A stretch of 43,564 bases of DNA. It comes from Folioceros fuciformis. Taxonomy: Eukaryota. A program made the translations under genes and the position numbers. Below the pieces are notes generated by a model. It had not been told where the DNA came from, ran no database searches, and saw nothing but the letters and a program-made list of their open reading frames with translations. The DNA lies in contig JBNGIO010005849.1 of assembly GCA_049999805.1 (NCBI GenBank), positions 1-43,564 of the forward strand, read 5' to 3'. Positions 1 through 34,827 of the stretch are shown one piece after another. The first letter of the stretch is position 1. Each line of letters opens with the position of its first letter.

Positions 1-10
1 GGAGGGGGAG

Positions 11-229
11 GGGCGCCACGCAGGCGCCACCTCGACGCCATGCAGGCTCCAGCTAGGCGCCATGTGAGAGCCACTTGGGTGCCACCTAGGCGCCATGTGA
101 GCGCTAGCGGGTGCCACATCAGCGCCACTTGGGCGCCACGCGGGTGCGACTTGGGCACCACGCGGGCGCCACCTAGGCACCACTTGGACGCCACCTAGGC
201 GCCACTGGGCACCACGTGGGCGCCCATGA
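11..229. repeat. GC-rich 11-bp tandem repeat (~20 units, consensus RGGCGCCACYT) in the 5' leader of copia element 1
   Basis: Consecutive units are readable: gggcgccacgc aggcgccacct cgacgccatgc aggctccagct aggcgccatgt ... gggcaccacgt. Confidence 0.85.
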
Positions 230-512
230 CGCGCAAAACGAGCGTGCCAGTGAAGCGAGGACCCGATTGCCGAGCGCCGGAAAGTGAACAAATCGCAGAC
301 GCCGGGAGCGAGAGTGTGGGCGCCGTATTGACCCCGGCTGAGGAAGTCAGGATCTCGATCAGACGTAGGAGGACATTCCTGTTATGAGCGACAGAGGCCC
401 AAGTTGTGGACATACGATTCGGAAGAAGTTGTGAGGGTGACCTGTAGAATCTACATTTCATTTCGACCAATTTCAAACCAGCTTTTTGGTTGATTTCGAT
501 CGATTTTGAAGC

Positions 513-4460: not shown

Positions 4461-4502
4461 ACCACTCTCTTATGAAGGTAAATTGGCCTTTAAGTGGGAG
4501 GT

Positions 4503-4829
4503 TGTAGGGTTATTAAAGCCCAATGTGCTTAGGCTAATGTGTTTAGTCTAATATTAGTGTCTAGTTAATGTGCTTAGACTAATGTGTTTAGTCTAAGATT
4601 AGTGTCTAGTTAATTATCATTAGTTTAGATTAGCTTAAGCTAATCTGTAGGAAGCTTCTTGCGCAGCTTCCTGTGAGCTTCTTGTGAAGCTTCCTAGGGA
4701 GCTCTTCTAGAGGGTATAAATACCCCCTTGAGCTCCCTTGCCAACTACTCTCAATGTGACCTCTTTTTCTCCTCTCCTCTCTGCCTCCTCTTCTCCTCTC
4801 CTCCACCATGCTCCTCTAGTGATCCTACA
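4503..4829 (+). repeat. 3' LTR of copia element 1 (327 bp)
   Basis: Starts TGTAGG two bases after the PPT and ends CCTACA (6-bp terminal inverted repeat). Contains TATAAATA at 4715-4722, a CT-rich tract after it, and a 45-bp internal tandem duplication at about 4522-4612. Confidence 0.9.
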
Positions 4830-5939
4830 AGTTGAGGGAGTTGAGAAGAGAAGAAAAGAAAGAGAGAAGCGTAGCCTCGCACTTAATGTGGCGTGAGGTG
4901 TGAGGCAGAGGATTGAGATGGAGAGTTGACTGAACTAACTGGAAAACGGTATGAGCTTCTTGGAAGATTGAGGAAGGTTGTGGAGGATCGCTGGAGATTG
5001 GGCCGGATTGTTGAAAGGTTTTCGAGTGTTTTCTAGTCCTTTGTGAGAGACTACTAAAGATTGTTGAAGGGTGCGAGAGATTGTGGAGGGTAGCTGAGAG
5101 ATTGGTGGGAAGTTGTGGCTGTTGCTAGGGGATTAGAAGCACTTGGAACCCGGCCTGGGGGAAATGATTGTGCATCAAAGTTCTTGTGTGTGTGTTTTAT
5201 GTGAGGGAGTGCGGCTTACCTGTGGGGTCTTGCTTCCCAAGGGTTGGCCTGTGCATGTGTGTCTAGCACCCAATAAGACCATCTCTATAAGTCCAAAAGC
5301 CCTGAAGAAGAAACCCGGGGTGAAAACCCATGGCGGCGCATATGCCAGAGAATATTAGTTAGGGTTTTGGGTGGGACGCATCGTGGTCGTGGGAATGGCT
5401 ACCGGTCATGGAACCCGCGACCATGGTGGTAGAGTCGGAACTGCGGACATAGAGTAGGGTCAGTAATAGCTGGGTTACCTAGAAGTAGTGGTAGGGAGCT
5501 AGTCGGTGATAGTGTGGTAGTAGAGGAGTCTTGACCAAGGTAAGAGTTAGCAATAGTAGAAGCCCATGTTACTTGGCAAAAATCATTCCCTTGAGAGTGA
5601 ATCTCACGACTACAACAACATAGAGGGTGAATGTCGACCTCACGGTGTCCTCGGACACAACATTTCACTCCATAGCAGGCAGGGCGGGGAATGGGGTGCC
5701 AGCCAGCCCATCCGCGAGGGCAGGTAGGGCGGGGCACGGGGTGCCGCAGCCAAGCCACGAGGGCAGGGCGAGGCACGGGCGCTAGCCCGCAGCCCAGCCA
5801 CTGGCGCAAGGCGAGGCGTGGGGCACCAACCCATAGAACGGCCGTAGCCGCAGGGTGCGATCGCGGGGCGCCAGCCCCCAGCCTGGCCGCGGGTGCAGGC
5901 CCCCATCACGGGGCCCCAGCCTGGTTGTAAGGGTAAGGA

Positions 5940-6070
5940 AGCCTACCCGACTGAGAGCCTACCCAAGGAGCTTACCCAGTGGGTAGCCTACCCGGTGGGG
6001 AGCCTACCTAACAGGGAGTGTACTTGGCAGGTAGCTTAACTAAAGGTAGCGGGTAGCTTACCCGAGTGGT
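5940..6070. repeat. Degenerate short tandem repeats (agcctaccc...ggtag)
   Basis: About 7 imperfect copies of agc(c/t)taccc spaced 13-20 bp apart. Confidence 0.6.
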
Positions 6071-6493
6071 GTATTAACAAATTATTAGGAAAAAAAAGAA
6101 AAGAAAAGAGTCTAGAGGGCATTGCTTATGAGGATTACTACTTTATGACACACATAGGCTCGTTAAGTCGTGTGAATGCCTAGTGTTGATGGTGGCAAAA
6201 GTGATTAGGAGTATGGATTAGAGTTGGAATAATTCTTACCGGTGAATGGCCCATGGTTCAAGTATTCAAGAGGCACGTGGCGACGACGAGAAGAGGAAGA
6301 GGTTGAACAACCAATCACGAAGGCAAACTTGGAGAGTTTGGAGCAAGGAGGCAAGTATGAGGTGTTCACAGGAAGACCCGGAAGTTTGATGTTTGAGACT
6401 TTGAGGACAAGATTATCTTGGAGGCGAGGTGTGGGCTGCTTATAGGAAGCATAAGGCGGAGCTTTGTATGTCTATGGCCTTTCATCTTGAGAT

Positions 6494-7216
6494 AGATTGT
6501 GCTACAGAGCACGCTAATCAAGTTTTAGAGGATATGCTTGGTGCTTATATAGGTGTGAACCAAGCTTGGTGGCTCGACTATTTTCACCTTGTCAAGTTTG
6601 CCTAATGCTCCTAATTCCTTGATGTGAGTTCCTCCATTCCTATCCAATAGAAATTTTCACCCTCATACACTACTTCTTGATTTCTTGCCTTCTATTGCTT
6701 GTGTCCTTGCTGGTGTAGAGTTCCTCAACCTGCGTATCTAGATTCAACAACAAGCTTGTTAATTTTCCCATGAAGCCCAAAACCACCAAGCCCATTTTGC
6801 CAATCACCATCATCGTTCTTAGGAACTCACACTTGGTGTTGGCTATGTCTTGTCGTCTGCCCAAAACTTGTCTCTTCTTAGCCAATGAGCTTGCTCTTCC
6901 TCCTGAATCTCGCATTCATCTTATCTTTCATGTAACTTCCTTGCTCAAACCTCATCATGGCTCCCCACCTTCTATGCCAACCTCAATTAATACTTGTAAT
7001 GGTCCTCCTTACGAAGTTGAAAGCCTCCTTTGCCATTGGTGTGTCGTCGTCACTAAGAATTCTTAATGTTGTGGAAAGGTTACCCCCTTCGAGATGCCTT
7101 TGGGACCCCCTTGCCAACCTGTCCCGTTCTTCTGACCTACTCCATGCCTACACTCATGGTCATCAACTACATCTCCTTGGCTTTGAGGTCGAAGCCTCTT
7201 CTCCCTAAGGATGAGT
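6494..7216 (+). mobile_element. Degenerate Ty3/gypsy (chromovirus-type) integrase C-terminus plus chromodomain, followed by a PPT-like tract
   Basis: TEHANQVLEDMLGAYIGVNQAWWLDYFHLVKFA resembles the gypsy integrase TERxNQxLEDMLRAY motif. ELALPPESRIHLIFHVTSLLKP resembles the GPY/F-region IHPVFHVSLLK. YEVESLL..LWKGYP..DAFWDPLANL is chromodomain-like and frameshifted. Purine tract aaggatgag precedes TGTTAC at 7217, a probable LTR start. Confidence 0.8.
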
Positions 7217-7519
7217 TGTTACGGATAAGCTATGGGGGCGCTCAATCTTCCGGAATAACAAGTTGCATAATTTGTTGTTGTGATCACGGCAAGTTTATCA
7301 TTACAATCTATGGCATGTACTGCAGAAGTTTGTGCATAAGAGCTAGGCTTTCCTTCTAGTAAACATGTGCTCAAGGGACATAAACGTAGTTTCCCCTTAC
7401 TCTTTTGTTTGCAATGTCCAGATGTGTAGTGATTTCTTACACCCAAGAACCACCAAAGGGCCACACTTCCCCTTATTGTCGTTGTAGTCTTATGATTCGC
7501 TCCCAAGGGAGTGAACTAG

Positions 7520-10302
7520 TGTCAAGGGTACCTACAATTTCCTACTCTCACCCTATCTATCAGCCGGTTCCTAACCTTGATCGTACTCCAGCAAAAAGGT
7601 CAGAATTATTAGCCTATCCTCAGCTCAACCCACTAATTCCACACTCCAGCACTTCAGTCCTTCAATCCTTTATGTCTCCACTTCAGCCCATCACTTCACT
7701 TCAGTCACGCACCTCTTCACTTCAGCTCACACTTCTGCACCCCAGCAACTCACACTTCACTCCACCTCACTCCAACACCTCCACACTTCTCTTCAACTCA
7801 ACCTTGGATTTTGGGACACAACAGCCTTGCCTCTCGAATTCTTCAAGCAAAGAGATGGGGACTAGGACTGGATAGCCCTCCTAGCTCACGGCCCTATCAC
7901 TTCACCTTAGCCGGCCTGCGAAATGATCAGTCGTTACAGATCCGGCCACACGGATCTCGGCAGTCTTGGGATCCACCACGTCCCCCTAGTGGCAAGGGGA
8001 ATCAAGTCCTTGGTTCAATCCCAACCGGCTCAGCACCCTAAGTCGGGAGTCTGCACACAAGGCCAAGGGAAATCACACCGTAGACTACCCCCTCCTCAAT
8101 GACAGGTCTGGCCACTTATACTACCTTGGCCCAAACCTCCATCTCTGTCTACTAGGGTTAGCCTCAGTCAACCGCCCTGCAGTCTCTCTCTGTCCTAAGC
8201 CGCCACTAACTCTGACCTAATCCTAATCCTAACTCTGACCTAACCTTAATCCGACCTAATCCTAACCTTGACCTAAGTCGAGCATAACTCTAACATAATT
8301 CTAACCCTAATTGCCCGCTACCCCTAGGACACTGCTAGTTGCCCCTACCAACAATCATCAGTGCCTCTCAAAACTGCCCTTGACTCCCTCAGACCTCCCC
8401 GGATGCACTAAGATAAGTTAACAGTAGCTCAAGACTAGGAATTCAGACTGTCATCCTTGGAGTGTCACTCAGAACACCCCCTTCTTCCCCCTGGACAACA
8501 AGCCTACTCCCTCTTAGCCCCAGCAGGATTTGAAACTCGGGCCCACTGCTTCCCCCCCTTCAGCGAGGGCACCTGGAACTCCACACCGGCCACTCGGCCA
8601 AACACTTCCACCGCTGCTCATTCTCCAAACCCAGAAAGTACTCATGCACTGCACGTTGCCTAGAACCGCTGATAGTTGAAGACGCTCCTCACTGATGCAT
8701 ACGGTCCCCTATCCGATTATACACGTCGCTACCATGGGACCCGTATTCTTCCCTAACACCAGCCCCCGCTTCGCACTGCCCCGATTCAGCACCCCTCCAC
8801 AGCGCTGTCAGAGCCCTTCGCCATCACGTGCCTTTCGACCTGGCTGTCTACCGAGCGCCTGTGCCTGCCTGGATCCGCCTGCAACCCGACTGCTAGATGC
8901 ATGGCTAGACCCGGCCAGCCAGCCACCCACCAGCTGATCGCTTGTCCAAATGTGCGTCCACTTGCAATCACCCCTACTAGCCGATCAGCCCGGCCACCTA
9001 CCTGGCTCCAGCCACGACCAGCCGCTTGTCCAGCCTCCAATAGGCTGACTACTGCGGCCACGATTCAGCAGGCCACTGACTGGCCACTATCAAGCCAACC
9101 GGCCTGGCTGCCTAGATCCAACTGCCAGCCCCTTGCCTGGCCTGCCAATCCACCCACCTCAATCCAACATGCTCGCCAGCCCACTGTGTTCCAGCCCGCC
9201 TAGACAGCTGGTCCGGATCCCACCACCTGCTCGGCTGCGTGGCCTGGATCCTGACTAGACCGGCCACTGCCCGCCTTGGCAATCCGGCCTTCTCCTACGC
9301 ACACCTCGCTTGATCCACTTCGGCCTGCCACAACTTGCTAGTCAGGTTAGTCCACCTCCCTGTCTGCCAAAATCCGGTGGCTACCCGCCTGGTCCGGCTC
9401 TAACTGCCGCTGGGCCACCTGCTGGCTCCCAGATCTGGCAGCTGCTGAGCCGCCTGCCAGCCTCCCGATCCGGCCCCAGCTGCCTACGTTCCATGCTCTT
9501 GCCCGCATGTCGGCCACCCCCCTTCCTACCAGCCGGTGTGTTCGGCTCCAGTATGGCACCCTTGGCTAATTTTCCCAGCCGCCAGCGCCTCGATCTGCTA
9601 GCGTGGTCTCTCCCCCCGCGGGTTTAGGGTCTAGCTCGGCCGGCCCTTGCCGCTGCCTGTATGCAGCTGGTCCACCCGGTTGCTGGTCAGGTTCCTTAGC
9701 AGCCAGGGGGCCCCTGGCTTGCTCCCGGCTACCCGTCTTGCCAGTCTACGGGCTAGCTGAATTCGGTCAAAACCCCAGCCTGGACCCAGCCAAGTCACCT
9801 AGCCGAACTTGCCCCCTACAGCCTGGCGACTTCGGCCCTTCCACCCGTACGTAACCGCTCACATGCTCCCTTGGCTACCTAGCTACCCCTCGGATCTGAT
9901 GCTTCCACAGCCTTAGCCCCTCCCTACGTGGACGCCTGCCCTCAGGGCCTCGGCCCCAGCACCTCTATCTCTATCTCCCGTTTCCACCAGCACCTGCCAA
10001 AGGGAACCCGACTTACCTCCACGCCCAGTTCTAGGGTTCCCAGTTCATCTGGACATCCTATCATGAGGAACCCGGCCTGTGTCCTATCTACCGCTCATCC
10101 TGCCTAGACCCTATCGACTCACCGTTAACCTAACCTCTAATCTAACCCAATCTCCTGACCACTCCCCTACGAAATTCAATCAAAAACCAAAAAAAAAACA
10201 AACTCTGCCATTTTTCCAAGAGATTTATTCATCATGTGGACTCCACACCAGACCATGACAGGAAGACCCTCATCAAAAGTGTACATGTCTTCAGGGTCTT
10301 AC
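7520..10302. repeat. Long non-coding low-complexity, repeat-like segment, probably retroelement LTR or leader DNA
   Basis: CT-rich tract 7620-7800, (CCTAA)-like tract 8207-8310, ccagcc-rich GC tract 8830-9900, A-run near 10190, and an LTR-end-like gggtcttaca at 10294-10303. No matching start or TSD found. Confidence 0.35.
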
Positions 10303-13140: not shown

Positions 13141-15161
13141 GCATTCCAATTAGTGGCTGGTTGGGGCAGACAAGTAAAGGAACTCGCTTGTCGCACTTCC
13201 GAAAGCTTCCATGAGTTTCTGTTAGTCCAAGGAGATGGAGATTCCTATCTAAGCTACCAAATTATAGCCCACATTGATTACAAAATATTTGCATACTCCT
13301 TTGATATACCAAATATTCTGAGATTGTTCTCTGCCATGCAAGAAAACTTGTTTATTTGTGCCCAAATGATCTTCTGCTTCAGAGCTTCCTTGTGCGAAAC
13401 GAGGAAACGATGGATTGGATTGTGAGGACAGTTCCAGCCAATCCCGTTCCAGCCACGTTGTGCGGAAGCTAGAGCTACTCCCACCGCCCAAATCCCGTGC
13501 ACATGTGCTCGCCTTGGGTCCCAATTCTGATATCGTTCTTCAGAACAGTGTTTTTGCTGGTTGTTTACTGTATAATGGTTGCCGTCGGAGCGGGAGTGGG
13601 AATGTTATGGCCATGTAGAGCGAGCCCATTCGCAGCTTCCTAATTTGCTGTAAAAAGCGTGACGTTTTCACTCTCCATGGCCGCCCACGATGGCCTTGCC
13701 GGCAACTTCAGAGTCAATATTGTCCCCGCAAGAGAGGCAAGAGGGACATGAGGATTTCCGCAATGGAAAAAAAAGAAAAGAGAAGCACATGGGGAAGCTG
13801 AGTCGAAAGTCGCTTAGAAAGTTCCGGAGAGCACGAGGAAATGCTATCTGTAACTGGTTACAGTATTGGTAGTGGGACACGCGGCCTGCCGGCCTGGCCC
13901 TTGCCCTTGCTTGAAGTGAACAGGAGTGTCCATAGGAGGTTGCGGCACACCATGAACAAAGCAAAGCACCTGGGGGGCAAGTGCAGTGGAGGTCCATGGC
14001 TTGGAATGTTGTTGCTGGACGAGCTGAGCCGAATCTCCGCATCACATGAAGCTGCCGATGATTGCAGGCTGTTAGAGAACCCTGGCACGGTCCCGGACAC
14101 AATGAACCCAAAAGCAAGCTGAGAAAGCACATTAGCAAGTGCGAGAATGCTCACTTGCCTTGTCTCATATCGGGGTCTGCAGGGTGCCCTTGCCGCACTC
14201 ACTGCACTGCGTACAGTACGCCAACATTTGCCAAATAAAGAACGGGAGACCGGCGAGATGCCCTGTGAGAAGAGTGGAGCCCGAGCGCGAGCCTGGATTG
14301 GAGAACAATCTCAGAGCAGGCTGTTGCAACCTCATTTTGCGAAAGAGGCCGGGGAGGAGCATCTGGCGAGTGAGGTGGGGAGTCAGTCACATGTGGGGAA
14401 CTGTGCAGGGCACTGTGCACGCCTGGTGACAAGGTGACGAGGGGGACAGGAACGGTGTGCACGTCTTGAGAGAGCGTGGCAGACGCCAGCACCAAGTACA
14501 CGCAGTGCCGCTGCTAACGAAAGCTCATCCGGATGGGTGGTGATGCCGTCGCCCACCTGTGCCCGGAGAGCAGAATTTGCAGGTGAAATTGCAACATGTG
14601 TACAGTGCTATAGATGGCGTGTCAACCAGAGAGCGACGCTGCAAACCGGGTTGTCAACCCTCGCTACCCTGTCCAAGCCGCAATCCCACAGACACGATGC
14701 CCTGTGCCCGAGTCGTGGATCCCGGAGAATCTGCCTGCTGACGTCTTGCTGCACTATATTAAGGCGCTGCAGAGAGAAGAGGGCGGCGTGTTGCCCAAGC
14801 TTTGCTGCTCGAACCCGCGTATAAAAATGGGCGGGTTGGCACAGCAGGATCTGAGTCCACGGATTCCTGAAGTCTTAGCTTCTTGTCGCCGTGTGCCAAC
14901 AGATTTCTGTTGCAAGGCCTTAGGTGGTATCCGCGCCTGGAGTTGCGAGCGGTGAGACGTCTCGCCAAAGGCTGGCTCTCGAAGAGGTCTCATCGCCGAT
15001 TCGTGGCAGCGCCAGCCCTGGAGCTTGGAGACGCGATTCGCGCATCGATGAGACGCGCGACAGTTTGCCGCTTTCGACAGCCTGGGGCTGTCTGTCTCCT
15101 TGCACTCCATTAGTTGGCTGCCCGCACCAGCATCTACAGGACGGGCCCGAGGGAAGCTGCC

Positions 15162-18100
15162 ATGGACGCGGGCGACGTCGGTGGCAAGGCGGTACAAGAT
15201 CAACGCCAGAGGGACGAGGGTGCGAGGTCTGAAGCGGACAAGGACGACGAGAGCGCGGCAGGTGATCCAGCCATGGCGCCTGCAGCGGCAGCGGCAGCAG
15301 CAGCGCCCGACGCCGGGACGAAAGGGAGGGCGAGCGGGGGCCCGGGGAACAGGACGGCGGTACCCTTCCACCGCCTCTTCCGCTTCGCGGACGCACAGGA
15401 CTGGGGTCTGATGCTGCTGGGCATAGTGGGGGCTATCCTGGACGGCCTCTCCCTCCCTGTGATGCTGCTGGTGATGAGCGGGCTCATCAATTCCTTCGGA
15501 GAGAACTCGCAGGGGGTGAAGTCCGACTTCATGGACGAGATCCGGAAGTACACCAAGGAGTTCACCTACATCGCGGTCGGCACCATGGTGGCCAGCTACT
15601 TGGAGGCGGCCTGCTGGATGCGGACTGCGGAGCGGCAGACGAGCCGGATCCGGCACAAGTACCTTCGCGCCATTCTCCGCCAGGACGTCTCCTTCTTCGA
15701 CCTGGCGGGGACGTCGACGGCGGAGGTGGTGAACTCTGTGGCCGTGGACTCTATGGTGTTCCAGGAGACGCTGGCGGAGAAGATTGCACACTTCGTGATG
15801 AACGTGTCGGGCTTTATAGGGGGCTACGCGGTGGCATTCTTTCTGGCCCCGAAGATGGCAGCGTTCATCCTCGCCTTTTCCCCGCTGCTCATCGCGCCCG
15901 GGGTGCTGTACGGGCGGACCCTGATGCAGCTCTCGCGGAAACTGCAGCAGCAGTCCGTGAAGGCAGGGGCTGTGGCAGAGCAGGCGTTGTCCGCCATCCG
16001 CACCGTGTACGCATTCGTCGGGGAGAAGCGCAGCAGCACCGCCTACAGTGCAGCGTTGGCGGAGACGGTGCAACTCGGAAAGCAGCAGGGCCTCGCCAAG
16101 GGGCTCACCATCGGCTTCAACGCCGTCTCCTACATCATCTGGGCATTCGCCGCCTACTACGGCGCGCGCCTCTCCATCAACGAGGGCGTGAGTGGGGGGA
16201 AGATCGTGGCCACCGGACTGGCCTCCATGGTCGGGGGGCTCGACCTCGGCCTGGCCCTCCCGGATTTACGCTACTTTGCGGAAGCCGCGGCGGCGGCCGC
16301 CACGATGTTCTCCATGATCGACCGCGTCCCCGCCATCGACAGCGATAACCCGGCTGGTACCCAGCTGGAAACGGTGCAGGGCGAGTTGGAGCTGCGGGGG
16401 GTGGAATTTCGCTACCCTGCCCGGCCCGACACAGTCGTGTTCCAAGACATGAATCTCGTCATCCCCGCGGGGCAGACGGTAGCCTTGGTGGGCGGTAGCG
16501 GCAGCGGGAAGTCCACCGTGGTGGCGCTCCTGGAGCGGCTCTATGACCCGGTCGCCGGCGAGGTGCTGCTGGACGGGGTGAACATCAAGAATATCCAGCT
16601 CAAATGGCTGCGGCTGCAGATCGGGCTGGTGAGTCAGGAGCCGGCGCTGTTCGCCACCTCCATCATGCAAAACATCCTTCTGGGGAGAGAGGGCGCCACG
16701 GAGGAGGAGGCCATGGCCGCCGCGCGCGCCGCCAACGCCCACGACTTCATCTCCATGCTCCCCGCTGCCTACGACACTCAGGTCGGGGAGCGCGGAGTCC
16801 AAATGTCCGGCGGGCAGAAGCAGCGCATCGCCATCGCCCGCGCCCTCCTCCGCAAGCCCCCCATCCTCCTGCTGGACGAGGCCACGAGCGCGCTGGACGC
16901 GGAATCGGAGCGGGTGGTGCAGACCGCGCTGGACAGCGCCGCCCTCGGGCGGACCACCGTTGTCGTCGCTCACCGCCTCTCCACCATCCGCCACGCCCAC
17001 AAGATCGCCGTGGTACAGGCCGGGCGGGTGGTGGAAACCGGGGTCCACGACGAACTGGTGAACCGGGAAGGTGGTGCGTACGCCGCCCTGGTCCGCCTCC
17101 AGCACACCCGCGCGTCGCAGAAGGAGCTCCACGACGAGATGGCCAGGGTATCCTCCTCCAGGGTGTCGTCCTCGCATGGCCCGCGCCTGAGCTCGCACCG
17201 CATCTCTAGCGCCCGCGTGTCCAGCGCCAGAGCCCCTGGCACCCTGCCCTTGGAGGAGGTGAAGGCAGCAGGAGTCGCAGCCCCGAAAGCGCCGTCCTTC
17301 AAGCGTCTCCTGGCCCTGAACAAACCGGAGTGGAAGCACGCAGTGCTGGGATGCGGGGGCGCTGCGGTGGCAGGGTTCGTGCAGCCGTTGTACGCTTTCC
17401 TGCTGGGGACGCTGGTGTCCGTGTTCTACTACACGGACAAGGAGCGCGAGAAGCGGACGGTGTCCAAGTTCGCGGGAGCCTTCGCCGCACTCTTTGTGGG
17501 CGCCGTGCTGGTGAACCTGATGCAGCACTACAACCTGCAAGTCATGGGGGAGAAGCTGACGCGGCGGATGCGTGAAATGGTGCTGGAGAAGGTGCTCACG
17601 TTCGAGGTCGGGTGGTTCGACAGGGAGGAGAACAGCTCGGGCGCGGTGTGCGCGCGGCTGAGCAGCGAAGCGAATGTGGTGCGGTCTCTAGTGGGAGACC
17701 GGGTAGCGCTGGTGGTGCAGGTGACGGCGGCGGTGCTCTTCTCGGCGGTGGTGGGGCTGGTGGTGGCCTGGAAGCTGGCCTTGGTAATGATCGCCATGCA
17801 GCCCCTGGTGGTGCTGGCCTACTACGGGAAAAAGGTGGTGCTAGCATCGGAGTCCGGGATGGCGATGCGAGCGCAGCAGGAGTCGAGTGCGCTGGCGAGC
17901 GAGGCCGTGTGCAACCACAGGACTATCACAGCCTTGTGCGCGCAGGACCGGATCGTTAACCTCTTCGACGCCATGCAGGACGGGCTCCGCAAGGAGAGCG
18001 TGGTGAGGGCAAACGTGGCGGGTGTGGGCCTGGGGATGGCGCAGTTCATCCTCTACTCCAGCTGGGCGCTGGATTTCTACTACGGCGGGAAGCTGGTGAA

Positions 18101-19087
18101 GGACGGGGATATATCCTTCCGCGCCATGTTCATCTGCTTCTTCGTGCTGCTGTCCACCGGGAGGATCATCGCGGACGCCGGGAGCATGACCTCGGACCTC
18201 GCCAAGGGCGCGGGGGCGGTGGCCGTGCTCTTCGCCATCCTAGACCGGAAGACGCTCATCGACCCGGACGGCCCGGGAGAGAAGCTGGAAAATGTGACGG
18301 GACACGTGGAAGTGAAGGACGTGGATTTCGCGTACCCGGCCCGGCCGGACATCATCATCTTCCGGAACTTCAGCCTCAAGGTGCGAGCGGGAACCAGCGT
18401 AGCCCTAGTGGGCCAGAGCGGCTCTGGCAAATCCACCATCATCGGCCTTATCGAGAGGTTTTACGATCCGCTGCGGGGCAAGGTGAAGATCGACGGGAAG
18501 GACATCTCCTCGCTGCACCTGCGAACCCTGCGCAGGCACATCGCGCTGGTCGGGCAGGAGCCGACGCTCTTCGCCGGGACCATCCGAGACAACATTTTGN
18601 NNNNNNNNNNNNNNNNNNNNNNNNNNNNNNNNNNNNNNNNNNNNNNNNNNNNNNNNNNNNNNNNNNNNNNNNNNNNNNNNNNNNNNNNNNNNNNNNNNNC
18701 TTCATCTCCGCGCTCGCGCATGGCTACGATACCAACACCGGGGAGCGGGGGCTGCAGCTGTCCGGCGGCCAGAAGCAGAGGATCGCCATCGCGCGGGCCA
18801 TCATCAAGAACCCCGCCATCCTGCTGCTGGACGAGGCCACCAGTGCGCTGGACGCGGTGTCGGAGAAGGTGGTGCAGGACGCGCTGGACAGGGTCATGGT
18901 AGGGAGGACTACCATCGTTGTCGCGCATCGGCTCACTACTATCCAGAACGCCGACTCCATCGCCGTGCTTCAGGACGGGGCCATTTTGGAGCAGGGCCGG
19001 CACCAGGAGCTCTTGAGTAAGGGCGAGTCCGGAGCCTACTTCCAGCTGGTGCAGCTGCAGCAGAGCAAGATGGTGGAGGAGTCGTGA
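15162..19087 (+). CDS. ABCB: Full-size ABC transporter subfamily B (P-glycoprotein/MDR), most like the plant ABCB15-22 clade; apparently intronless; spans a 100-N gap
   Basis: TMD-NBD-TMD-NBD layout. Walker [10 protein letters not shown] and [10 protein letters not shown]-loops VSQEP and VGQEP, signatures [13 protein letters not shown] and [13 protein letters not shown], Walker [12 protein letters not shown] twice, H-loop VAHRL twice. [33 protein letters not shown] resembles the ABCB15 clade. First ATG 15162; after the gap the frame resumes [11 protein letters not shown] and ends at TGA 19085-19087. Confidence 0.95.
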
Positions 19088-23998: not shown

Positions 23999-25741
23999 CC
24001 TGCAGATGGAGACAAGGAAACACCAACCTCAGCTACATAACCCACGCTCTGCGGCAGAAGGGCGGAAACCTGGAAACAGCCCACACCGTTGCGATCTTTG
24101 ACGAGCACATCCTGACAGGGAAGATTCACACACCGGGTGCTGGGATTCACAAGCTCCGTGACGCCATCGCGGACAGCAGCCGGGGAGGAGGTCAACTCCG
24201 ACGACGCCGTCAGGGCTGTGGAAGCTTGTTGGCAGCCACGCTAGCTCCAAGGAAGCGCTGTTCCGAGTTCCGATGGCTGGGCGGAGAGGGGACAGATTTC
24301 CAACAACAGGCGAGCTCCTCTCCAGAGCTCTGAGAATGCTATGCCCAAAAATATAGGTTCACCCGTCAGGTGTGGGGATGTAGCGACTGGTAACTGGCCA
24401 CACAACCCCGTGACTAGTCCTTGGCAGCCACCAAAGCCGAAAGGACAAGGGAAAGGAAACGGAAAAGGAATCGACGACGATACTCCCGCAACCAGCCATA
24501 CGCAGTTCTTGCCAAACGATGGACACAGTGTGGCCCACGAGTCCGCTTTGAAGGAGACAGGAATCACGATTTCCTACTTCATCGGCCAGTTACCCTACCA
24601 CATCCTGTATGTCCTGTACATATATACTTACATACATACATGCATACNNNNNNNNNNNNNNNNNNNNNNNNNNNNNNNNNNNNNNNNNNNNNNNNNNNNN
24701 NNNNNNNNNNNNNNNNNNNNNNNNNNNNNNNNNNNNNNNNNNNNNNNNNNNNNNNNNNNNNNNNNNNNNNNNNNNNNNNNNNNNNNNNNNNNNNNNNNNN
24801 NNNNNNNNNNNNNNNNNNNNNNNNNNNNNNNNNNNNNNNNNNNNNNNNNNNNNNNNNNNNNNNNNNNNNNNNNNNNNNNNNNNNNNNNNNNNNNNNNNNN
24901 NNNNNNNNNNNNNNNNNNNNNNNNNNNNNNNNNNNNNNNNNNNNNNNNNNNNNNNNNNNNNNNNNNNNNNNNNNNNNNNNNNNNNNNNNNNNNNNNNNNN
25001 NNNNNNNNNNNNNNNNNNNNNNNNNNNNNNNNNNNNNNNNNNNNNNNCACTAGACTTGAGAATAACCTTGTTGCTTTAAATCTTCAGAATGGAGTAAATT
25101 TTAAAATCAAATAAATGTCGTGTGGGACAAACAAACAAAGTTCGGTTAAGGTGTTTCTCTCCAGATTGCAGCTGCCAGCAATGTAGCAGCCCTCAAGCCA
25201 TGAACATCAGTTGATCTACACATACACATGATCAGCAGCACACAATGTGCTGAGCACAGAAGGAAGCAAGCAAAAATGTGAATCTCCTACGCGACATAAA
25301 ACCAGCTCATACATGGTTTCTTAGACGTTGTAGGAATGCCACGATTGATGGGCTGCCGTTGATGGGCAACCTAGAGTAGTGTAAGTCACGTCGGAGCTGC
25401 CAATGAACATAGAAAATCCACAAGCTTTACAACACTCCTGCCCCAAATCGGGTTGGAAATTACAAACTCAAAGCAAGCAAAATCCTTGGTGCGAGGTCAG
25501 GCACTCTCCCTTGGTGCAATTTAGATGACTGCCTTCTACGGCACCCTTTCTAGGGTTTAGCGCTAGCCGCTATGGCTTATGTCAACGACGATTTCAAGTA
25601 TCAGCGGCGATCATGTCACCGTTGGGCTCACACTCTTGGTGTGAGCCCACAAGCAATTCTAAGTGTAATATGAAGCTATATAATTAGTGATAGTGAAGGT
25701 GAGTCCCTATCCTTTCTTTTTGCCCTCTTTAGGGTTTTTTT

Positions 25742-25876
25742 TAAAGGAATACGTGTGTTGGATAGATTATTAGAGTTCAGTAGCTTAGTTAAGCCAAAAG
25801 CTTCATAACATGCCTTTTCATTAGGGTTATGTCGTTTGATTAGGTCAAGATGTTTCATATGTGACTTAAGTTATTT
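25742..25876 (+). repeat. Left LTR-like direct repeat of copia element 2
   Basis: taaaggaatacgtgtgttggatag...gtgacttaagttattt aligns without gaps to 33116-33250 with 10 substitutions by my count. Confidence 0.85.
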
Positions 25877-25877
25877 C

Positions 25878-26530
25878 CCCTTCTTTCAGACTCATCCATC
25901 CCTAGGTCTTCTCGAGCTCGTATTCGATCTTGTTTAAGTAAAGGAGTGGGCTCTTGGCTTTTAGCTCGACCTTGCATCCAGGCGTTTCGAATCGCACCAG
26001 CAACTTTCGCCACCACCATGAGATTTTGCTTAGGTTTGGCCCACCCCTTGGCTTTTTCTCTCTCTACATGCAGTTGTGGGGTTGCCACTGTCGGTACAGG
26101 GTCCTATTTGGCACGTTGTCTCATTGGGGGGCACCGCATTACTACTCATGATGCAGTTCGAGATGTGATGTTCTCAATGGCTAGGGAGTGTGGGTTTCTT
26201 CCGTATAGGGAGCGTCCATATACTTTGCGCAATGGAGTTTCACTTAGAGCCGACCTTTTCTTCACTAGGGGAGAACAGGTTTGTGTTGCTGATGTGGTTG
26301 TTACGGATCCCACTAGGGATTCAATTTGTGATCACATCATCATCAACCCCCATGGTTGGGCAGCAAAGGGTTGTGCAAGTGCCAAAGTCTATAAGTATTC
26401 TCCCTTGCAACACGGGCATACTTTCATCCCCCTTGCTCTTGAGACTCATGGAGCTATGGGCAAGGACTTTTCAAGGTTTATCAAGGAGTGCGCCAAGGTT
26501 TATCAGAGCAATAGGAATGGTGTAGTAGGA
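25878..26530 (+). mobile_element. 3' fragment of a non-LTR retrotransposon with zinc knuckle and restriction-like endonuclease (CRE/R2-group-like)
   Basis: GVGSWLLARP, MRFCLGL, CSCG..YLARC (CCHC-like), THDAVRD (RHD motif), LRADL..VCVADVVVTDP (PD..D core), AKVYKY, FIPLALETHGAMG. This motif order is typical of RLE-type element C-termini. Confidence 0.8.
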
Positions 26531-26911
26531 TGCAAGTTGTGTTGTAATGAATGCACATTTAAAAATGTATTTGAAAGAATACATTTATATTATTTTTTTG
26601 TTTGTTTTGATTTAGAAATAAAGTTTCTTGATCAAGAAACAAGAAATATAAAGAACATATTGTTGTGTTGATTGTTTATATAAATGCACTTATAGTTTCT
26701 ATTAGATTAAGGGAGTGATCCCGATGCATCCCCTCTGATTTGCTACTTCAGCAAAATGAGCAGGAATGCCCTACGATAACTACCTAATCTATAGTTAGAT
26801 TATTAGTGGCATCTATATAGAAATTAGAATGTTTAAAAGAAAATTCTAACAACACAAAAATCTAGCCTGATGAATGGCCGATCGAGTGGATGGCTGGCCT
26901 TGCCTTGCTGA

Positions 26912-27433
26912 ACGGATTCAATATCAAAATCGTCACAGGGGCCAGAAGTCATTGCGCAAACATCATGGAATGTTGTAGCAGAACAACTTTCACAAAGAAA
27001 CCACAATCAGAGAGGTTTTCTAATAACTCATGTTTCCCAATCACCTACTATTGACCAATTGATAAACAGGATCGAGGCACATCAACAAGTTGACAAACGT
27101 TTTGACACTATCTCACATAGAATAATTGCAGTGACTGTTGATCTGCATGATTTGATCGAAAAGATAGATCATTTGGACTTTAAGTTGCTAACCTTATTTA
27201 AGCCTACTCCACTTGCTAATCCTGCATTCAGAGGAGTAGCTTGTAAGCACGCTAAGAAAACAAGTAGAGCTCACACATTTAACAGTCCAAATTCGTGCCT
27301 CTCTTGTACAACGTATGCGTACAATATGTGGGAGATTAGAAACCAGAAAATTGGGAACATTGCACAACATCAGGGGTTAGTAAACACACCAGTAGACAAC
27401 AGGTTGCCTAACCTTGCTGCTAACATTCTCTGA
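26912..27433 (+). other. Extra open frame (173 codons, no upstream ATG) immediately before gag of copia element 2
   Basis: Stop-free from 26912 to TGA 27431-27433. Heptad-like stretch FDTISHRIIAVTVDLHDLIEKIDHLDFKL, followed by C-K-H and C-L-S-C. Confidence 0.4.
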
Positions 27434-27546
27434 CTTTGCTTCTGAAGTGGTATGTGCCTGAGGTCCTAGAGAACAGACCAACAAGGTTAGTCATTTTAGC
27501 ATCTTAGTATTTTGGGAGTAGCTAACCCAAGGTTCAAAAGAGGAAA

Positions 27547-30500
27547 ATGGCTGATCCCTCATCTAACTATGGTGAGGAAGGGTTTAGGGAAAAGGACAGA
27601 TTTGATCGGTATGATTACGACATATGGATAATCAAAATGCGTGGAGCTTTACAAAACAAAAAAGCTTCAGAAGATAGCTATGGGCGATGGAGATTTCCCA
27701 GCAACTTCCACCACACCCACCACTGCTAAAAAGATGAAACAGGACGAATGGGTGGCTAAGGATGAAGCTGCCATGTTCCTGATCCGAAGTGGTTTAACCT
27801 CAGATATGCTGAGGCAGACATCCGGATGTAAAACCTCAGCTGAAATCTAGACACAACTTCAGAACCTATACTTAGGCAGCAACACAACAAGTCAGTTGAC
27901 AGCCTTGCGAAATTTGCAAAATTGCAAGATGAGAGATGTAGAATCAGTAGAGAAGCACCTCGGTCATTTCAAGACACTTGTCTCCAAATTGGAGAGTGCC
28001 TCTAATAAGAGTGTCAAGGAAGACATGCTAACCTTGTACTTCTTACTATCTCTCCCAGAATCATGGTCACATTTCATGACATCTTTTAATGCTTCACATC
28101 TTCAGACCTCAAAATTGGCAAAGGCTGCGAATGTTACACTTCCAGAAACCACCTTTATAGAGTTAGTGGGATGGGATCATTGCTCTAAGAAGAAGCAACA
28201 AAGGGTTCCAGTAGACGTTCTGGAAAACAGCAAGCCCTCTACACATCCAATAAGGGACGTGGAGGAGGAAAACCCTACAACAGAGGTGGAGGCAGTTCAT
28301 CTAGAGGTGGTGGCTCACAAGGACAAGGAGCCAGCCAAAGGAAACCAAAAAGGACAGGAAGCTGCAATTGGTATAAGTTATCTGGTCACTAGGAACATGA
28401 GTGTAGAAAGAAGCAAGTTGGTGTTCCTCGCAAGGAGGGTTCATCTGTTGCTAAAACTCACGTGGTTATGAAGAAACAACCTATCCCTTCAGCCCTCACA
28501 GTAGGTACACGAGTTTTTGCAAGTTCATACTTGCTTCCTACTTGCCTATCAACAAAATTAGAGGTTAGACCAGTTGTGGACTAGTACTTAGATACAGGTG
28601 CTACAGCCCACATTTGTTTCGACAAAGGATCTTTTCAAACATATTAGTCATTTAAGGATCAATATCTTTACCTAGGTGATGACAAATCCCTAGTGTCCCT
28701 TGGTTGTGGCACAATAGTCTTATCAGTTCCGTCAGGTGTAGTACTAACTCTACATGACGTTTATTACATGCCAGGCATGACTAGAAATTTAATTTCAATC
28801 AGAAAGTTGAATGCTGACAATAATTGTTACATGCTATTCACGAGAACAGAATGTCAATTGCTGGATGCATTTGATCATAGAGAGATACTTGCCTATGGTT
28901 ATGAAGACCATGATTGGTTTCGTCTTCATATTAATAGTGGTGTCCCAACTTCTCACTTCACTCGAGACGTCACCACTATGTCTGCACAACAAATTGACAA
29001 ATCTAAGTTGTGGCATACAAGGTTAGGTCACCCTCACATAGCAAAACTACAGAGGTTGTTTAGCGGATTGTAAGCTCATCAGGATTGTAAACCTGCAAGC
29101 TCTGATACCATTTAGCGGATTGTAAGGTCATCAGGATTGTAAACCTCCAAGCTCTGATACCATTTAGCGGATTGTGTGTGTGCTGATGCATGGGCACGGG
29201 AACGAGAGAGCGCAAGGGGCAAGCAAGCAAAAAAAACGGTTATATTTCATTTCACAAGAAAGTATATATATATAACTAGGTATTTAATTAAGTATATAAC
29301 CTGATTACAAAACTAACCTACTTACTAACATGATTTCCTTTAGGTTGGCTGTTAGTGACTTTTACCAAGATGGATTAATTGGAACATTGGCTCCACTTTC
29401 ACTTTGTGAATCTTGTGTTCTTTCCAAGGGACAGCAAGCTGCTTTTAAGAATAAAGCACCTCACAGGGCTACAGAGGTTTTAGAACTTGCTTCATACATA
29501 TCTGTGTGGCCCACTCTCACAGGAGTCTATAGGTGGTGGGAGATACTTCCTTACTTTTACAGATGACGAAAGCAGGTTTGTCACCACCTACATCCTGAAG
29601 CAGAAAAGTGAGTGTTTTAGACATTTCAGAGATTACCTCAAGTATGCTGAAAGGTGGATTGGAAAGCAACTTAAAACCTTGAGATCAGATAATGGGGGAG
29701 AGTTTACCTCAAATGAATTTCAGGCTTTTTGTGGGCTGAAGGCATTGGTCGACAACAATAGTTGTCTATACTCCTCAACAAAATGAAGTCGCTGAGCGTC
29801 TTAACCTAACTTTGCGGGAGATGACATCTTCCTTGCTACATCATGCTCAGCTTCCCTTGTCATATTAGGCAGAAGCCATTGTGACTTCAACATATCTCAA
29901 AAACCGGTTACCCACAACTTCTATTGTTGACCAAACCCCTTATGAGGCTTTCACAGGTCGCAAACCATCAGTTCAACACTTGCGAACTTTTGGTTGCGTG
30001 GCTTAAGCCTTCATACCTAAGGAGAAGAGGAAAAAGTTGTCTGATAAGGCTAAAAAACTTCTCATGTTAGGCTACACATAAGGAATCAAAGCCTACAAGC
30101 TTTATGATGTCCGTAAGAACAAGATTGTGTATGCTAGAAGTGTTACTTTTGATGACAATCGCACCTGGGCATCAGTGGAATATGTTGAGGATCATGTTCT
30201 CAACGATAATGAAGACTCAACAGGTTTTGTTGATTCACATTTTGATCAAATAGATCACGGAACTCAACCCATTCAACATGAGAACGTTGTTACTACAGGT
30301 GGGGAAGACATAGCAGATTTTGAGTTTGTAGACACTAACGAGGCAGGTGTAGTTGAACCCGAAACCATACCTACACCTGAAGATCCAAATCAGCCAGTCT
30401 TACATGAACAACATCCTTCTGTTGTTGCAGAAGAACAAAATGCTCAAGCAGTACTGGAATTGGATGATGATCCTAGTTCCACCCAGCCTATACAAGAACC

Positions 30501-31981
30501 TCAGCCTGTAGAACCATCTAGACAATATCCATCTCGTCATAGGCAACCTCCAGATTATTACCGTGCATCCGATTTTAGAGTCACTTCCTCACATGTGGAA
30601 GTTAATGCTACAATGTCCCTGGATCATGTCGAACCACAATCCTATCAAGAAGCATTGCGTAGACCTGACCACATCGAGTGGGAGAAAGCTATTCAATCAA
30701 AATATGACTCCTTAATCGAAAACGGCACATGGGAGCTTGCAGAATTGCCACCAGGCAGAAAGTTGGTTTCTTGCAAATGGGTCTTTAAGTTGAAAGTAAA
30801 GGCAGATGGTACCTTTGATAGGTACAAGGTTCGCTTGGTCGCAAGGGGTTTCTCTCAAGTCCCTGGACTGGACTATCTTGATACTTTCGCTCCATTCGTC
30901 AAGCTTGCCACCCTCAGAACAATTCTTGCTATATCCACACACTATAATTATGAGCTGCAAATGTATGACGTCAAAACAGCATTTCTACAGGGGAAATTGG
31001 ACACAGAGATATACATGCAGCAACCTCTAGGATATGAGGTAAAAAGAAAAGAGAATCATGCTTGCCGGCTAATTAAATGCTTGTATGGCTTGAAGCAATC
31101 AGCTATGAAATGGAACGCAGCTTTAGATACAAAGTTGTTGGAGTTAGGCTTCACCAAGAGCAAGGCGGATAGCAGTCTGTATGTTTACATAAAGGGAGAC
31201 GTGATATGCTACCTTGTAGTTTATGTGGACGACCTGATCCTCTCCAGCAATAGCCAAGTCTTTATAACAAGTATTACAGATATGCTAGCCACAAAATTCA
31301 AGATGTCTAGCCTAGGCCCCTTACAGAGCTGCCTAGGTATTCATATTCAAAGAAACAGGTAGACTCATGTAATGACACTATCTCAGCCACGTTACCTTAT
31401 GGATAGTGCTGAGTAGTTAGGCCTTAAGGATGCAAAGCCCGCTTCTACCCCTCTGACCACATGACTTAAGCTCAGTCGGAGTATGTCTCCCTCTCCACAA
31501 GTAGAAAAGGATCAAATGTCAAAGATACCTTACAAAAATGGAGTAGGTAAGTTGATATATGCATCGAATACAACAAGGCTAGAGGTGGCTTATGCAACGA
31601 GTGCTTTATCACAGTTCTTGGAAAATCCGGGTCCAGAACATTGGGCCAGTCTGAAATGTGTCTTTAGGTACTTGAAAGGGACACCAACTTTGGGGATCTC
31701 CTACAGACAAAAGATTGGACAAACCCTAGACATAGAAGTCTACACAATGCTGAAGGTACATACTCGAGTGCTATAGACCTTTTGAACCATAGCACTCGAG
31801 TATGTATCCTTTTGACACTCGAGTACCTTTTAGCGCTCGAGTATGTATCATAACACAAAGCAACCCAGCAGACATTCTCACAAAGGCACTTAGCAGAGAT
31901 GCTCACCAAAGACATGTCCAATGCTTAGGGATGGGAGAGTCAGCAGCTCTCTTATCCAGAAGCAACAGCAGTTCGATATAA
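27547..31981 (+). pseudogene. Copia gag-pol of element 2 with multiple stops and frameshifts; most of RNase H deleted
   Basis: Gag DYDIWIIKMRGAL, LLSLPESW; knuckle CNWYKLSGH*EHEC; protease YLDTGATAH; LWHTRLGHP..CESC; LRSDNGGEF; RT YKVRLVARGFSQ, YDVKTAFL, VYVDDL (31219-31236); RNase H remnant NPADILTKAL at 31862; stop TAA 31979-31981. Confidence 0.95.
29059..29342 (-). mobile_element. Nested solo-LTR-like insertion with two tRNA-iMet PBS copies and a 5-bp TSD (ggttg)
   Basis: ggttg at 29054-29058 and 29343-29347. Removing the insert restores HPHIAKLQRL-AVSDFY...LCESC. gctctgatacca (reverse complement of TGGTATCAGAGC) lies at 29099-29110 and 29151-29162. Confidence 0.88.
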
Positions 31982-31992
31982 TGCCCTAAGGC

Positions 31993-32830
31993 CTAAAAAC
32001 ACGAGTCAAAGCTACTATGGTCAGAGGAGTAGCCAAAGTCTACTGACTCTCTAGAACGCGGAGACTCGGGTTCGGACTCCTCCTCTTCTTCGTAGGAGTC
32101 ATGGCCATAACTACTAACAAGGGAAAAACTTTCATATGATCTTGGAGAGTTGCGGCGACAACGTTCTTCATAAGAAACATGTTTCTCATACTCGAGATCA
32201 GCTTCTTCCTTGAGTCTTATATTAGACCCTGTACAAAAGAAGTGGGAGCAAGCGTAAGATATTACCACAAGACAGAATAACAGGATCAACCAGAACATGA
32301 AAGGTTCACAGATGCTTACTATATGGGCTCACGATGTAACAAGGATAGGTTCTACAGATGTGCACGCCAACTCTTTTCATGGTGATCTCTGTGCAGCCTA
32401 GCCACACCTTGTACCATACAGGTGAGCGAGGGTGCTTCATAGTCCCACAACTGACAATTCTTGTCTCACGATCTGTGCCAGTAGGTTTAGGGAACACAAT
32501 AGGTAAAGCAGAACGAGACTCATCATTATAGTAGGCAAAATTGGGTAGTTTCAGTGTCGCAGCCGCCGTCTTTGCCTTGGGCGCAGGTGGGGCAGAAGGG
32601 CAACCCATGTCCCAGTTTGCCTTGAACACAATAGCCTCAATGGTCTTGCACTGCTCCAGGAACTCCTTAGTGGTACCCTTGGGCCTCTGTACTCCCCGCT
32701 TAACACCTTTTGCAGCAGTCGGTGTCGAAGCTCCAAGAGTGGTAGTTGTCTTAGCAGCAAACCTGCCCTTGGAATCTTGTATCTAGTGGCACTTAGGACT
32801 AGGCTCATAGTTGCAATCTGAGGAAGCCAT
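31993..32830 (-). pseudogene. Antisense extra ORF between pol and the 3' LTR of copia element 2
   Basis: caccATGGCT at 32830 gives MASSDCNYEPSPKCH*IQDSKGRFAAKTT..., in frame with ORF 32306-32629. It continues past TGA as TFHVLVDPVILSCGN, then shifts frame to an acidic, Ser-rich tail ending at 31993. Confidence 0.65.
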
Positions 32831-32879
32831 GGTGATGAGAAGGAAAGAGATCCTGTGTTGTAGTAGCTCGGAGAGTGAG

Positions 32880-32915
32880 AGTGAAATGAAATGAAAAAAA
32901 GCCAGCGTTATATAA
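32880..32915 (-). promoter_or_regulatory. Putative core promoter of the antisense ORF
   Basis: TATATAA (32914-32908), followed on the minus strand by pyrimidine-rich ttcatttcactctcactctc and an ATG about 80 nt downstream. Confidence 0.55.
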
Positions 32916-33115
32916 GGGACGCGCACCTCATCTCTACCAACTTCACACTAGCGCATATCATCTTGATCAGAATTGACAAGAATGCGAGAGCGAAACCGAG
33001 TACAGGAGATGTTGGCTATGAAGCTTGAAATTGAAGGCACAGTTGAACCACAGTCTCACGAGTAGCCTCCAGCAGATTGAAGACTGTACAAGAAATCATT
33101 ACCAACAAGTGGGAG

Positions 33116-33250
33116 TAAAGGAATACGTGTGTTGGATAGATGATTAGGGATCAAAAGTTTAGTTAAGCCAAAAGCTTCATAACGTGCCTTTTCATTAGGG
33201 TTACGTCATTTGATTAGGTCACGATGTTTCATATGTGACTTAAGTTATTT
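33116..33250 (+). repeat. Right (3') LTR-like direct repeat of copia element 2
   Basis: Directly follows PPT aagtgggag (33107-33115), the same 9-mer as the PPT of element 1. Confidence 0.85.
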
Positions 33251-34827
33251 TCATGACACATATACATACGAATGTATTCTTGACATAATGTAATTATCTT
33301 ATATGTTTAATTGATTTGTATCTACCTAAATTTGTTAGTTTTCTTAAGTCTTGGGATAGAAAGACCTTTCCATCCTTTTTCCAAAATGAAGGCTCCATTT
33401 TATTAACCAAGGGCATCCTTCCCTTAAACAACCTTATCGAACTACTTTCCTTTTAGGGACCTACTTCTAAATATTGAGTTATTTCTTAAAGCATATGGTT
33501 TCCCTTATTTACATCCATGAGTACTAACATCCCACTATTGGGAGGAGAAAGGTCTATTGTTGATGCCAACTCTCTTATTAAACTATATTCCTTGCTAAAA
33601 AAATAGACTAATATACGAGTATAAATACTCGTAGATAATGTATGAATGAACTAATATAGAATAAATCTATTAAATATGAAATATTATGAGCAAGAAGTAA
33701 AGCTTTCCTCACGGAAGATGAGTAGGTGCATAGTAATTATCAGAGTAGTGTAGGAGTCCATGTCTTTCGAAACGGCGTTCCTAAGTTCTTGCCAGACAAA
33801 CAGTACTTACTTGTGCGGGATGCAAATGCGGAGCGGATCTACCTTAAGAATATGAGATACCATGCGTAAGAAGTGAAGCTTTCGTAACTGAAGGTGAGTA
33901 GGTGCATGTTAGTTACCCCCGGTTATAGGTTGCGTACAGAAAGCCACGCGTTACTTCCGAGCGTGCTAAGCGGGATAAACCCCAAGGTGTTTAAACCGGG
34001 CCAGAGAGTCTATTTAGAGTATCCGCCCCCGTCAGCAAAACCATCTTGGATCCTACGCACAGCACCGCACGACTCCAACTTAGCAGCTGACCTTGAGACC
34101 AGATTGCTTTGTTCCTGACCGCTTCGCCCTGCCTGTGATACAATCAAGACCTGGTATACCGTGTTGTCGAGCTCGCACCCCTTGCTGAGCTCACCCCGCC
34201 ATCCTGTCCTTCGCGTTCCCGCCATTTTTATCCTTTCGGCTCGCAGGCAGCACTTGGCGGGGCCGCCCGCCCATCCTCACCCGACCTGCCCGATCCCTAG
34301 GTTGCACAGCAGCGAGCAGGTACAATGCCGCTACGTCGGCTCGTCTGGTCGCCGTGCACGGTCCAGCGGCTGCCCGATCCGATCCGCACTTGGGACTGCC
34401 CTTTCTTTTCCTTGTTATTTTTGCTCACCACTGGTCGGTCCCGTTCCCATCAGAGCTTGGTTTGTGTGTTTGATTTGTGTGTTTGTGTGTGTGTCACGGA
34501 ATCACAGGTTGGAGATCTTGCCGAAGAGCACGAGCTTGAGTCGGGGTAGCTCAGCATTTGGTCCTCGAAGCTGACGGGTAACGCGGTGTGGATAGGGGAT
34601 TCATGTTCTTGGAAAGATCGGTGAAATCGTGCGCTCGTGTGAGCGGGTTGGGAGGGAGCTCATGTTTTTGGCAGTGGCATTATGCTTCGCAGGGTGTGGT
34701 TGTCGGGAGCGCGGTGCGCCGGCGTCGTTTGAGGTCGGCGGGATCGGAATTGTAGAATTTTGCACCGGAGTAGCCTGGAGTCAGGAGGTAATCGACGAGA
34801 GGGGATGTATGAGGCGGGAGAGATTGG

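Follow-up and report, generated by a model that had tools for sequence, protein, structure and literature searches.

A decayed Ty1/copia insertion in Folioceros fuciformis with a putative relic of an antisense accessory gene

The 43,564-nucleotide stretch of Folioceros fuciformis DNA analysed here (contig JBNGIO010005849.1 of assembly GCA_049999805.1, positions 1 to 43,564 of the forward strand; hereafter the window) holds one copia insertion of 7.6 kb, at 25742-33337, with an extra reading frame on either side of gag-pol: a sense frame in the leader and a frame on the opposite strand between pol and the 3' long terminal repeat (LTR). We give about even chances to the reading that this is a dead insertion of a low-copy Ty1/copia family in which the 3' region is the relic of an antisense accessory gene and the 5' frame perhaps that of a second. 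The gag-pol is dead, both extra regions are parts of the family that are present in sibling copies, and both extra frames are more open than chance. Judged from its sequence features, the antisense unit is probably the relic of a real, if putative, element gene. The 5' sense frame, which runs over 187 codons from the ATG at 26870 with one TGA, may be a second accessory open reading frame (ORF) and is the weaker candidate; the three-gene reading that would follow is plausible but unproven.

Extent of the element and state of gag-pol

The original prediction had set the element between two 135-bp repeats. These repeats (25742-25876 and 33116-33250) are real, 135 nt long and 92.6% identical, with sharp edges on both sides, but the LTR is longer than they are, and its left copy is cut short. 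The full extent emerged from contigs of four public runs of the same organism, aligned to 25100-34000 at a likeness of at least 80%. Three sibling contig variants link 33337 (or 33338) to 26524 via TGGTATCAGAGC or a close variant of it, a word which we take to be a primer-binding site (PBS) of the tRNA-Met type. With its end placed at 33337 by these joints, the LTR measures 222 bp, 87 bp more than the repeat. Two direct LTRs bound the element, the 5' copy being truncated. The original prediction had seen no PBS, and indeed no match to TGGTATCAGAGC with up to two mismatches follows the left LTR; in the sibling contigs the word follows the LTR end and precedes 26524. Its assignment to the tRNA-Met type agrees with the PBS types of PMC6317226. 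TA stands at the start of both LTR copies and, at 33337, at the end of the 3' LTR, where TG...CA would be canonical; the TA...TA termini are a non-canonical detail and no ground for excluding the element from the Ty1/copia superfamily. The insertion is old, to judge by the 10 differences that separate the LTR parts over 135 positions. The features of the element are as follows.

25737..25741: left candidate target-site duplication TTTTT, matching GTTTT in four of five letters; weakly supported, in a T-rich left flank
25742..25876, + strand: truncated 5' LTR, the first 135 of 222 bp
25877..26523, + strand: fragment (about 650 bp) of a very abundant unrelated repeat, in place of the final 87 bp of the 5' LTR and the PBS
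26499..26513, + strand: TTATCAGAGCAATA, a PBS-like remnant or microhomology, at this fragment's right junction
26524..27546, + strand: leader between PBS and gag, 1023 bp
26870..27433, + strand: sense extra frame, with ATG at 26870, TGA at 26909-26911 (codon 14), 173 open codons at 26912-27430 and stop at 27431-27433
27547..31981, + strand: decayed copia gag-pol, ATG at 27547, stop at 31979-31981
29055..29343, + strand: 289-bp insertion in the region of the integrase N terminus, with flanking direct repeat AGGTTG
31993..32228, - strand: putative exon 2 of the antisense unit, an open frame with stop at 31995-31993
32229..32319, - strand: putative 91-nt intron, GTAAGC...TTTTGTACAG, whose removal restores the frame
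32320..32830, - strand: putative exon 1; its ATG (32830) stands in the context ACCATGG, and codon 16 is a premature TAG (32785-32783)
32908..32915, - strand: TATA-like TTATATAA, 78 nt upstream of the ATG at 32830 and followed by a CT-rich stretch
33107..33115, + strand: polypurine-tract-like AAGTGGGAG, adjoining the 3' LTR
33116..33337, + strand: 3' LTR, 222 bp, termini TA...TA, its start set by the repeat edge and its end by the sibling joints
33338..33342: right candidate target-site duplication GTTTT

The sibling contigs also decide which parts belong to the family. The original prediction had warned that the upstream ORF could belong to something else; since the PBS of the siblings adjoins 26524 directly, the 5' sense frame is not part of the foreign insertion and lies in the family's own leader, which at 1.0 kb is unusually long. 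On the other side, diverged contigs span 32303-32745, 32735-33182 and 32806-33238 and reach into the LTR; in other copies, then, 3' region and LTR are continuous. The earlier view of a single copia element enclosing both extra regions is therefore sustained, as sibling copies carry both of them. The evidence from siblings consists of contig tables, and the summed contig depths in these tables do not equal copy numbers.

Contigs leave the window sequence in large numbers before 25878 and behind 26523, and between these points the contig depths sum to about 4500, compared with 9.7 for the unique flank on the right. A 268-codon frame (25865-26671) lies mostly within this foreign fragment. It falls among unnamed eukaryotic clusters of the Atlas (0.96-0.97); the nearest cluster with a family is zf-RVT (0.87), which is a lead only and leaves the label 'non-LTR' unconfirmed, and neither Pfam nor PDB gave a match. 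Compared by eye, TTATCAGAGCAATA at the right junction resembles TGGTATGAGAGCAATA..., which one sibling contig carries between the LTR end and 26524, and this resemblance suggests a join at microhomology.

The original prediction of a gag-pol at 27547-31981 was right as to its kind: Pfam domains follow in the order Retrotran_gag_2, Pol_BBD, gag_pre-integrs, rve and RVT_2 (E 1.7e-59), which is the order of Ty1/copia, and tblastn with full-length relatives is colinear. The frame is not open, however, as the least-cost reading path meets 20 disabling events (12 stops and 8 frame shifts, four of the events within one insertion), a density of about 4.5 lesions per kb in this copy. The best database relatives are only 34-50% identical and bear no lineage label. 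With the full-length relative P0029 as tblastn query, residues 1164-1303 found no match between 31683 and 31853 (170 nt), so that most of the RNase H core is missing. A 59-nt imperfect palindrome (31753-31811, 80%) lies exactly at the missing core and may mark the deletion event. At two of the stops (27848-27850 and 29866-29868) all or nearly all other contigs have another letter, and near the frame breaks at 29490 and 29733 many of them differ by one letter. Because the other contigs differ at these lesions, part of the damage is private to this copy and therefore need not be the state of the family.

Removal of the insertion at 29055-29343 restores both the frame and the pre-integrase motif. 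Within the insertion are two 52-bp tandem units, and the minus strand of each contains TGGTATCAGAGC without mismatch; read on the plus strand, the units end in the complement of the PBS word, after which come an A-run and an AT-rich tail containing TACTAAC. The insertion may derive from part of a small retroelement lying in reverse orientation, or have arisen as a by-product of reverse transcription. We rejected a sense intron as a less simple explanation, its GT..AG ends belonging to the 6-bp flanking direct repeat. Rfam gave no match over 25500-33600, nor did ARAGORN over 28900-29400.

The antisense unit and the sense frame

Between pol and the 3' LTR lie 1.1 kb (31982-33115), in which the original prediction had placed an oppositely oriented ORF, 32830-31993, with its own TATA box. 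The TATA-like TTATATAA and the ATG at 32830 are there, but the ORF is not one frame: its 838 nt are not a multiple of three, a TAG stands at codon 16, and the frame changes near 32306-32328. Close to this change, at 32319, we found a GTAAGC donor, which can be paired with a TTCTTTTGTACAG/G acceptor at 32229; removing the sequence between them (32229-32319) puts both frames in phase, yielding 248 codons and a stop. The T content of this putative intron is 43%, compared with 24-29% in the exons. By a crude, home-made splice-site score the acceptor ranks first of 67 and the donor is tied first of 55; as a pair they are tied first of 1045, and among the three tied pairs theirs is the only one that restores the frame. 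Because the stop of the antisense unit (31995-31993) lies 11 nt from that of pol, the two converge. The predicted product would be basic in its exon 1 part (pI 9.8) and acidic and Ser-rich in its exon 2 part (pI 4.5).

Openness was compared with that of dinucleotide shuffles, 2000 per region. The observed minus-strand frame of 158 codons was reached in 18 of 2000 shuffles of the 3' region, and over the exon 1 stretch the three minus frames contain 0, 5 and 12 stops. The 173-codon sense frame at 26912-27433 proposed earlier is confirmed as stop-free on the plus strand, where the three frames contain 0, 14 and 16 stops over the same stretch; none of the 2000 shuffles of the leader reached 173 plus-strand codons (maximum 158). 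A third open region that was tested has 0, 6 and 14 stops by frame, and out of 5000 shuffles of the three regions only 2, 5 and 7 left any frame fully open. Upstream of the sense frame, 129 codons in the same frame contain 10 stops; the upstream and the antisense frames of the leader are random-like, with 12 events per kb on the minus strand.

A codon-usage score was built in three trainings on the two copia polyproteins of the window, with stops ignored. The maximum among 83 open control frames is 0.142, and held-out pieces of real gag-pol score 0.05-0.16. Exon 1 (0.172) and exon 2 (0.177) lie above all 83 controls and at or above the held-out pieces, and an overlapping 118-codon alternative frame has a negative score. 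The sense frame scores 0.073 per codon in frame and negatively out of frame. Comparing the lesion density of the extra frames with that of gag-pol was rejected as evidence, the frames having been picked for their openness.

If the antisense unit was a gene of the element, it would have been transcribed from its own TATA promoter, convergently with pol, and the transcript would have been spliced at the 91-nt intron. It is only on the strand antisense to the genomic RNA that such an intron would survive retrotransposition. The spliced product, about 248 residues long, basic towards its N terminus and acidic and Ser-rich in its tail, could have been a nuclear regulatory factor, or the unit a source of antisense RNA modulating the element; we guess at this role by analogy with the antisense ORFs of gypsy elements.

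A number of observations weigh against the accessory genes. Both extra frames have a premature stop 14-16 codons past the candidate ATG. The sense frame does not start with an ATG, and its first in-frame Met comes near its end, the in-frame ATG at 26870, 14 codons upstream, being cut off by the TGA at 26909-26911; 11 of the 83 control frames reach its codon score; and one-base indels occur within it in siblings, at 27210 (about one third of the depth) and at 27297/27301. The leader contains 19 ATGs, which equals a rough composition-based estimate of about 19; by this count it does not resemble a scanned 5' untranslated region. In the antisense unit, one of the three codon trainings prefers another frame for exon 2, the splice scoring is crude, and 32535-32821 is open in four of six frames, so that composition adds to the openness there. 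As to homologues, a full HMMER scan of 1.84 billion representatives returned no match to the sense frame; for the antisense frame, none was found in the Atlas or by word-index searches among near or longer proteins, which are word-limited and which distant relatives could escape. Neither frame has a match in Pfam (E up to 10) or among PDB sequences, or a homologue in 79 related metagenome copia loci by tblastn and blastn (best E 0.049). AlphaFold2 folds from single sequences gave long helices at low confidence for the sense frame (predicted local distance difference test score, pLDDT, 47.6) and a pLDDT of 32.2 for the antisense product, which is weak evidence either way.

Much of this would be expected if both extra regions were non-coding filler resembling untranslated regions (UTRs), their frames arising from composition and post-hoc selection and the TATA box, ATG and intron being coincidental, an explanation that we regard as somewhat unlikely. 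It accounts for the absence of homologues for either product, the low-confidence folds, the missing start codon of the sense frame and the early stops in both frames, the multiple openness of 32535-32821 and the sense codon score within the control range, and it agrees with published statements that the extra ORFs found in LTR elements vary greatly and have a doubtful function (PMC6317226). It does not readily account for frames reached by 0 of 2000 and 18 of 2000 shuffles, for the rarity of fully open frames in the larger sets, for antisense codon scores above 83 of 83 controls, or for the best acceptor of the region pairing in phase with a top donor.

The fullest form of the three-gene proposal, a true copia plan with a 5' sense ORF, gag-pol and an intron-bearing 3' antisense gene with its own promoter, both accessories being under purifying selection, we consider unlikely.

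It is distinctly unlikely, in our estimate, that one or both regions are pieces of host genes captured by an ancestor of the family and have since been passive cargo that does nothing for the element. In the antisense unit, promoter, ATG context and intron are host-like, and LTR elements are documented to capture genes (PMC7264820); yet very large plant-containing collections yielded no related protein (the antisense search, as said, being word-limited), tblastn and blastn found no second copy of either frame in the window, and the occurrence of the regions in several diverged siblings means that a capture would predate the family's spread. Least probable, and very unlikely, is that Gag once extended N-terminally into the sense frame, which decay has since severed: the frame shares the strand of gag, whose ATG is only 113 nt downstream, in a copy with the lesion density given above, but joining it to gag needs two more events within about 115 nt, the Pfam gag domain starts at a normal distance (about 50 codons) from the ATG at 27547, and relatives aligned by tblastn show nothing upstream of gag.

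Surroundings of the element and other observations in the window

The window is a eukaryotic scaffold with three gaps of Ns, and its genes are of plant type: NDUFB11, an ABC-B transporter, an oxysterol-binding/PH gene and DUF639. A gap of 400 Ns (24648-25047) adjoins the left flank of the copia element. Over this flank (25100-25741) many diverged contigs align, with a summed depth of about 90-110 compared with 9.7 on the right; given this depth, the element probably sits at the edge of another repeat. The right flank is at the unique depth of 9.7 from about 33416 on, and contains two 67-nt direct repeats (33673-33915) with 81% identity and a spacing of 176 bp.

Of the four runs, X4, which we guess to be RNA, gave six aligned pieces, none of them in the leader beyond 26584 or in the 3' region, a result that carries no weight either way. 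In X3, C>T (548) and G>A (214) changes are far above all others, unlike in X1 and X2 from the same sample, and X3 looks like a cytosine-conversion (bisulfite-type) library.

A second copia polyprotein occupies 618-4460 on the plus strand. It has all Pfam domains in a single frame throughout, damaged only by three in-frame stops and one shift at its extreme end, and is unrelated to the element at 25742-33337, with which it shares no DNA similarity. A search of 1-8000 found no LTR pair for it. Upstream, at the start of the window, lies a GC-rich tandem array of 11-bp units like GGCGCCAC (1-227).

At 15114-18902 (+ strand) lies the gene for a full ABC-B-type transporter (ABC_membrane twice, ABC_tran twice), in one unbroken frame of 1262 codons. 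The gene appears intronless and its neighbours are split. It lies in a GC island of 57-68%, and a gap of Ns (18600-18699) crosses the frame; the high GC at this locus also opens long frames on the opposite strand.

Comparison with known retrotransposons

The original prediction was accurate in its background, that antisense extra ORFs are known from gypsy elements and sense, env-like ones from SIRE-type copia elements (PMC7264820, PMC4093653). It went too far in suggesting that the architecture is undescribed. Neumann et al. 2019 report extra ORFs of at least 250 codons in 582 Ty1/copia elements, in 45 similarity groups classed by position and orientation (PMC6317226), so that extra ORFs in copia are not new as such. 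The frames described here resemble that set of heterogeneous orphan ORFs; its threshold, however, is at least 250 codons in one open frame, for which neither of them would qualify.

For the sense frame, the closest counterparts are 5' sense extra ORFs between PBS and gag, such as the eORF-5'F class of Neumann et al. 2019 and ORF0 of rice Retrosat2. Retrosat2 is a gypsy element (PMC4093653), and the frame here lacks an intact start and a homologue. Another gypsy element, Ogre, is said to carry its ORF1 as a 5' sense extra ORF.

SIRE or Sirevirus elements (SIRE1, ToRTL1, pvRetro3/4) are copia elements too, and the long stretch that separates their pol from the 3' LTR holds an extra ORF. Theirs is sense and env-like (PMC4093653, PMC6317226), whereas in 31982-33115 no sense frame exceeds chance, the longest plus-strand frame having 90 codons, a length reached in 519 of 2000 shuffles. 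The LTRs differ too, at 222 bp here and about 1.7 kb in pvRetro3/4 (PMC4093653).

Should the two frames prove not to be conserved, the insertion would be merely an old broken copia copy with long untranslated regions. Should the reading of an antisense accessory gene hold, its place in a wider pattern would be of interest. Antisense accessory genes of plant LTR retrotransposons are described for gypsy lineages only, in the sources available, and their function is unknown; full-text literature searches, judged by their listings and the passages cited here, brought up no paper on an antisense 3' ORF in copia. A copia family that independently carries an intron-bearing antisense gene under its own promoter would show that this layout arises repeatedly, the three-gene plan would extend the antisense-accessory strategy from gypsy Tat-type elements to copia, and the intron would mark the gene's long transmission on the non-genomic strand. 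The element, with its 7.6 kb and 222-bp LTRs, would then be a compact system for studying the role of such genes.

The antisense unit itself is most like the antisense ORFs between pol and the 3' LTR of gypsy Tat-type elements, with which it was compared by description: gene23 of maize Grande, and those of rice RIRE2, Silene Retand and bean pvRetro13 (PMC7264820). In bean, 15 families have antisense ORFs, pvRetro13 and 14 others, all of them gypsy (PMC4093653). Position and strand match, as they do for the aORF-3R type of accessory ORF, and the protein is an orphan in both cases. An internal promoter of its own was shown for Grande (PMC7264820), where the element described here has a TATA-like sequence only. 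The differences are the copia domain order, the apparent intron that the frame needs, and the TAG that breaks it in this copy; at 248 codons the frame is also shorter, in comparison with bean ORF2s of 211-939 amino acids (PMC4093653).

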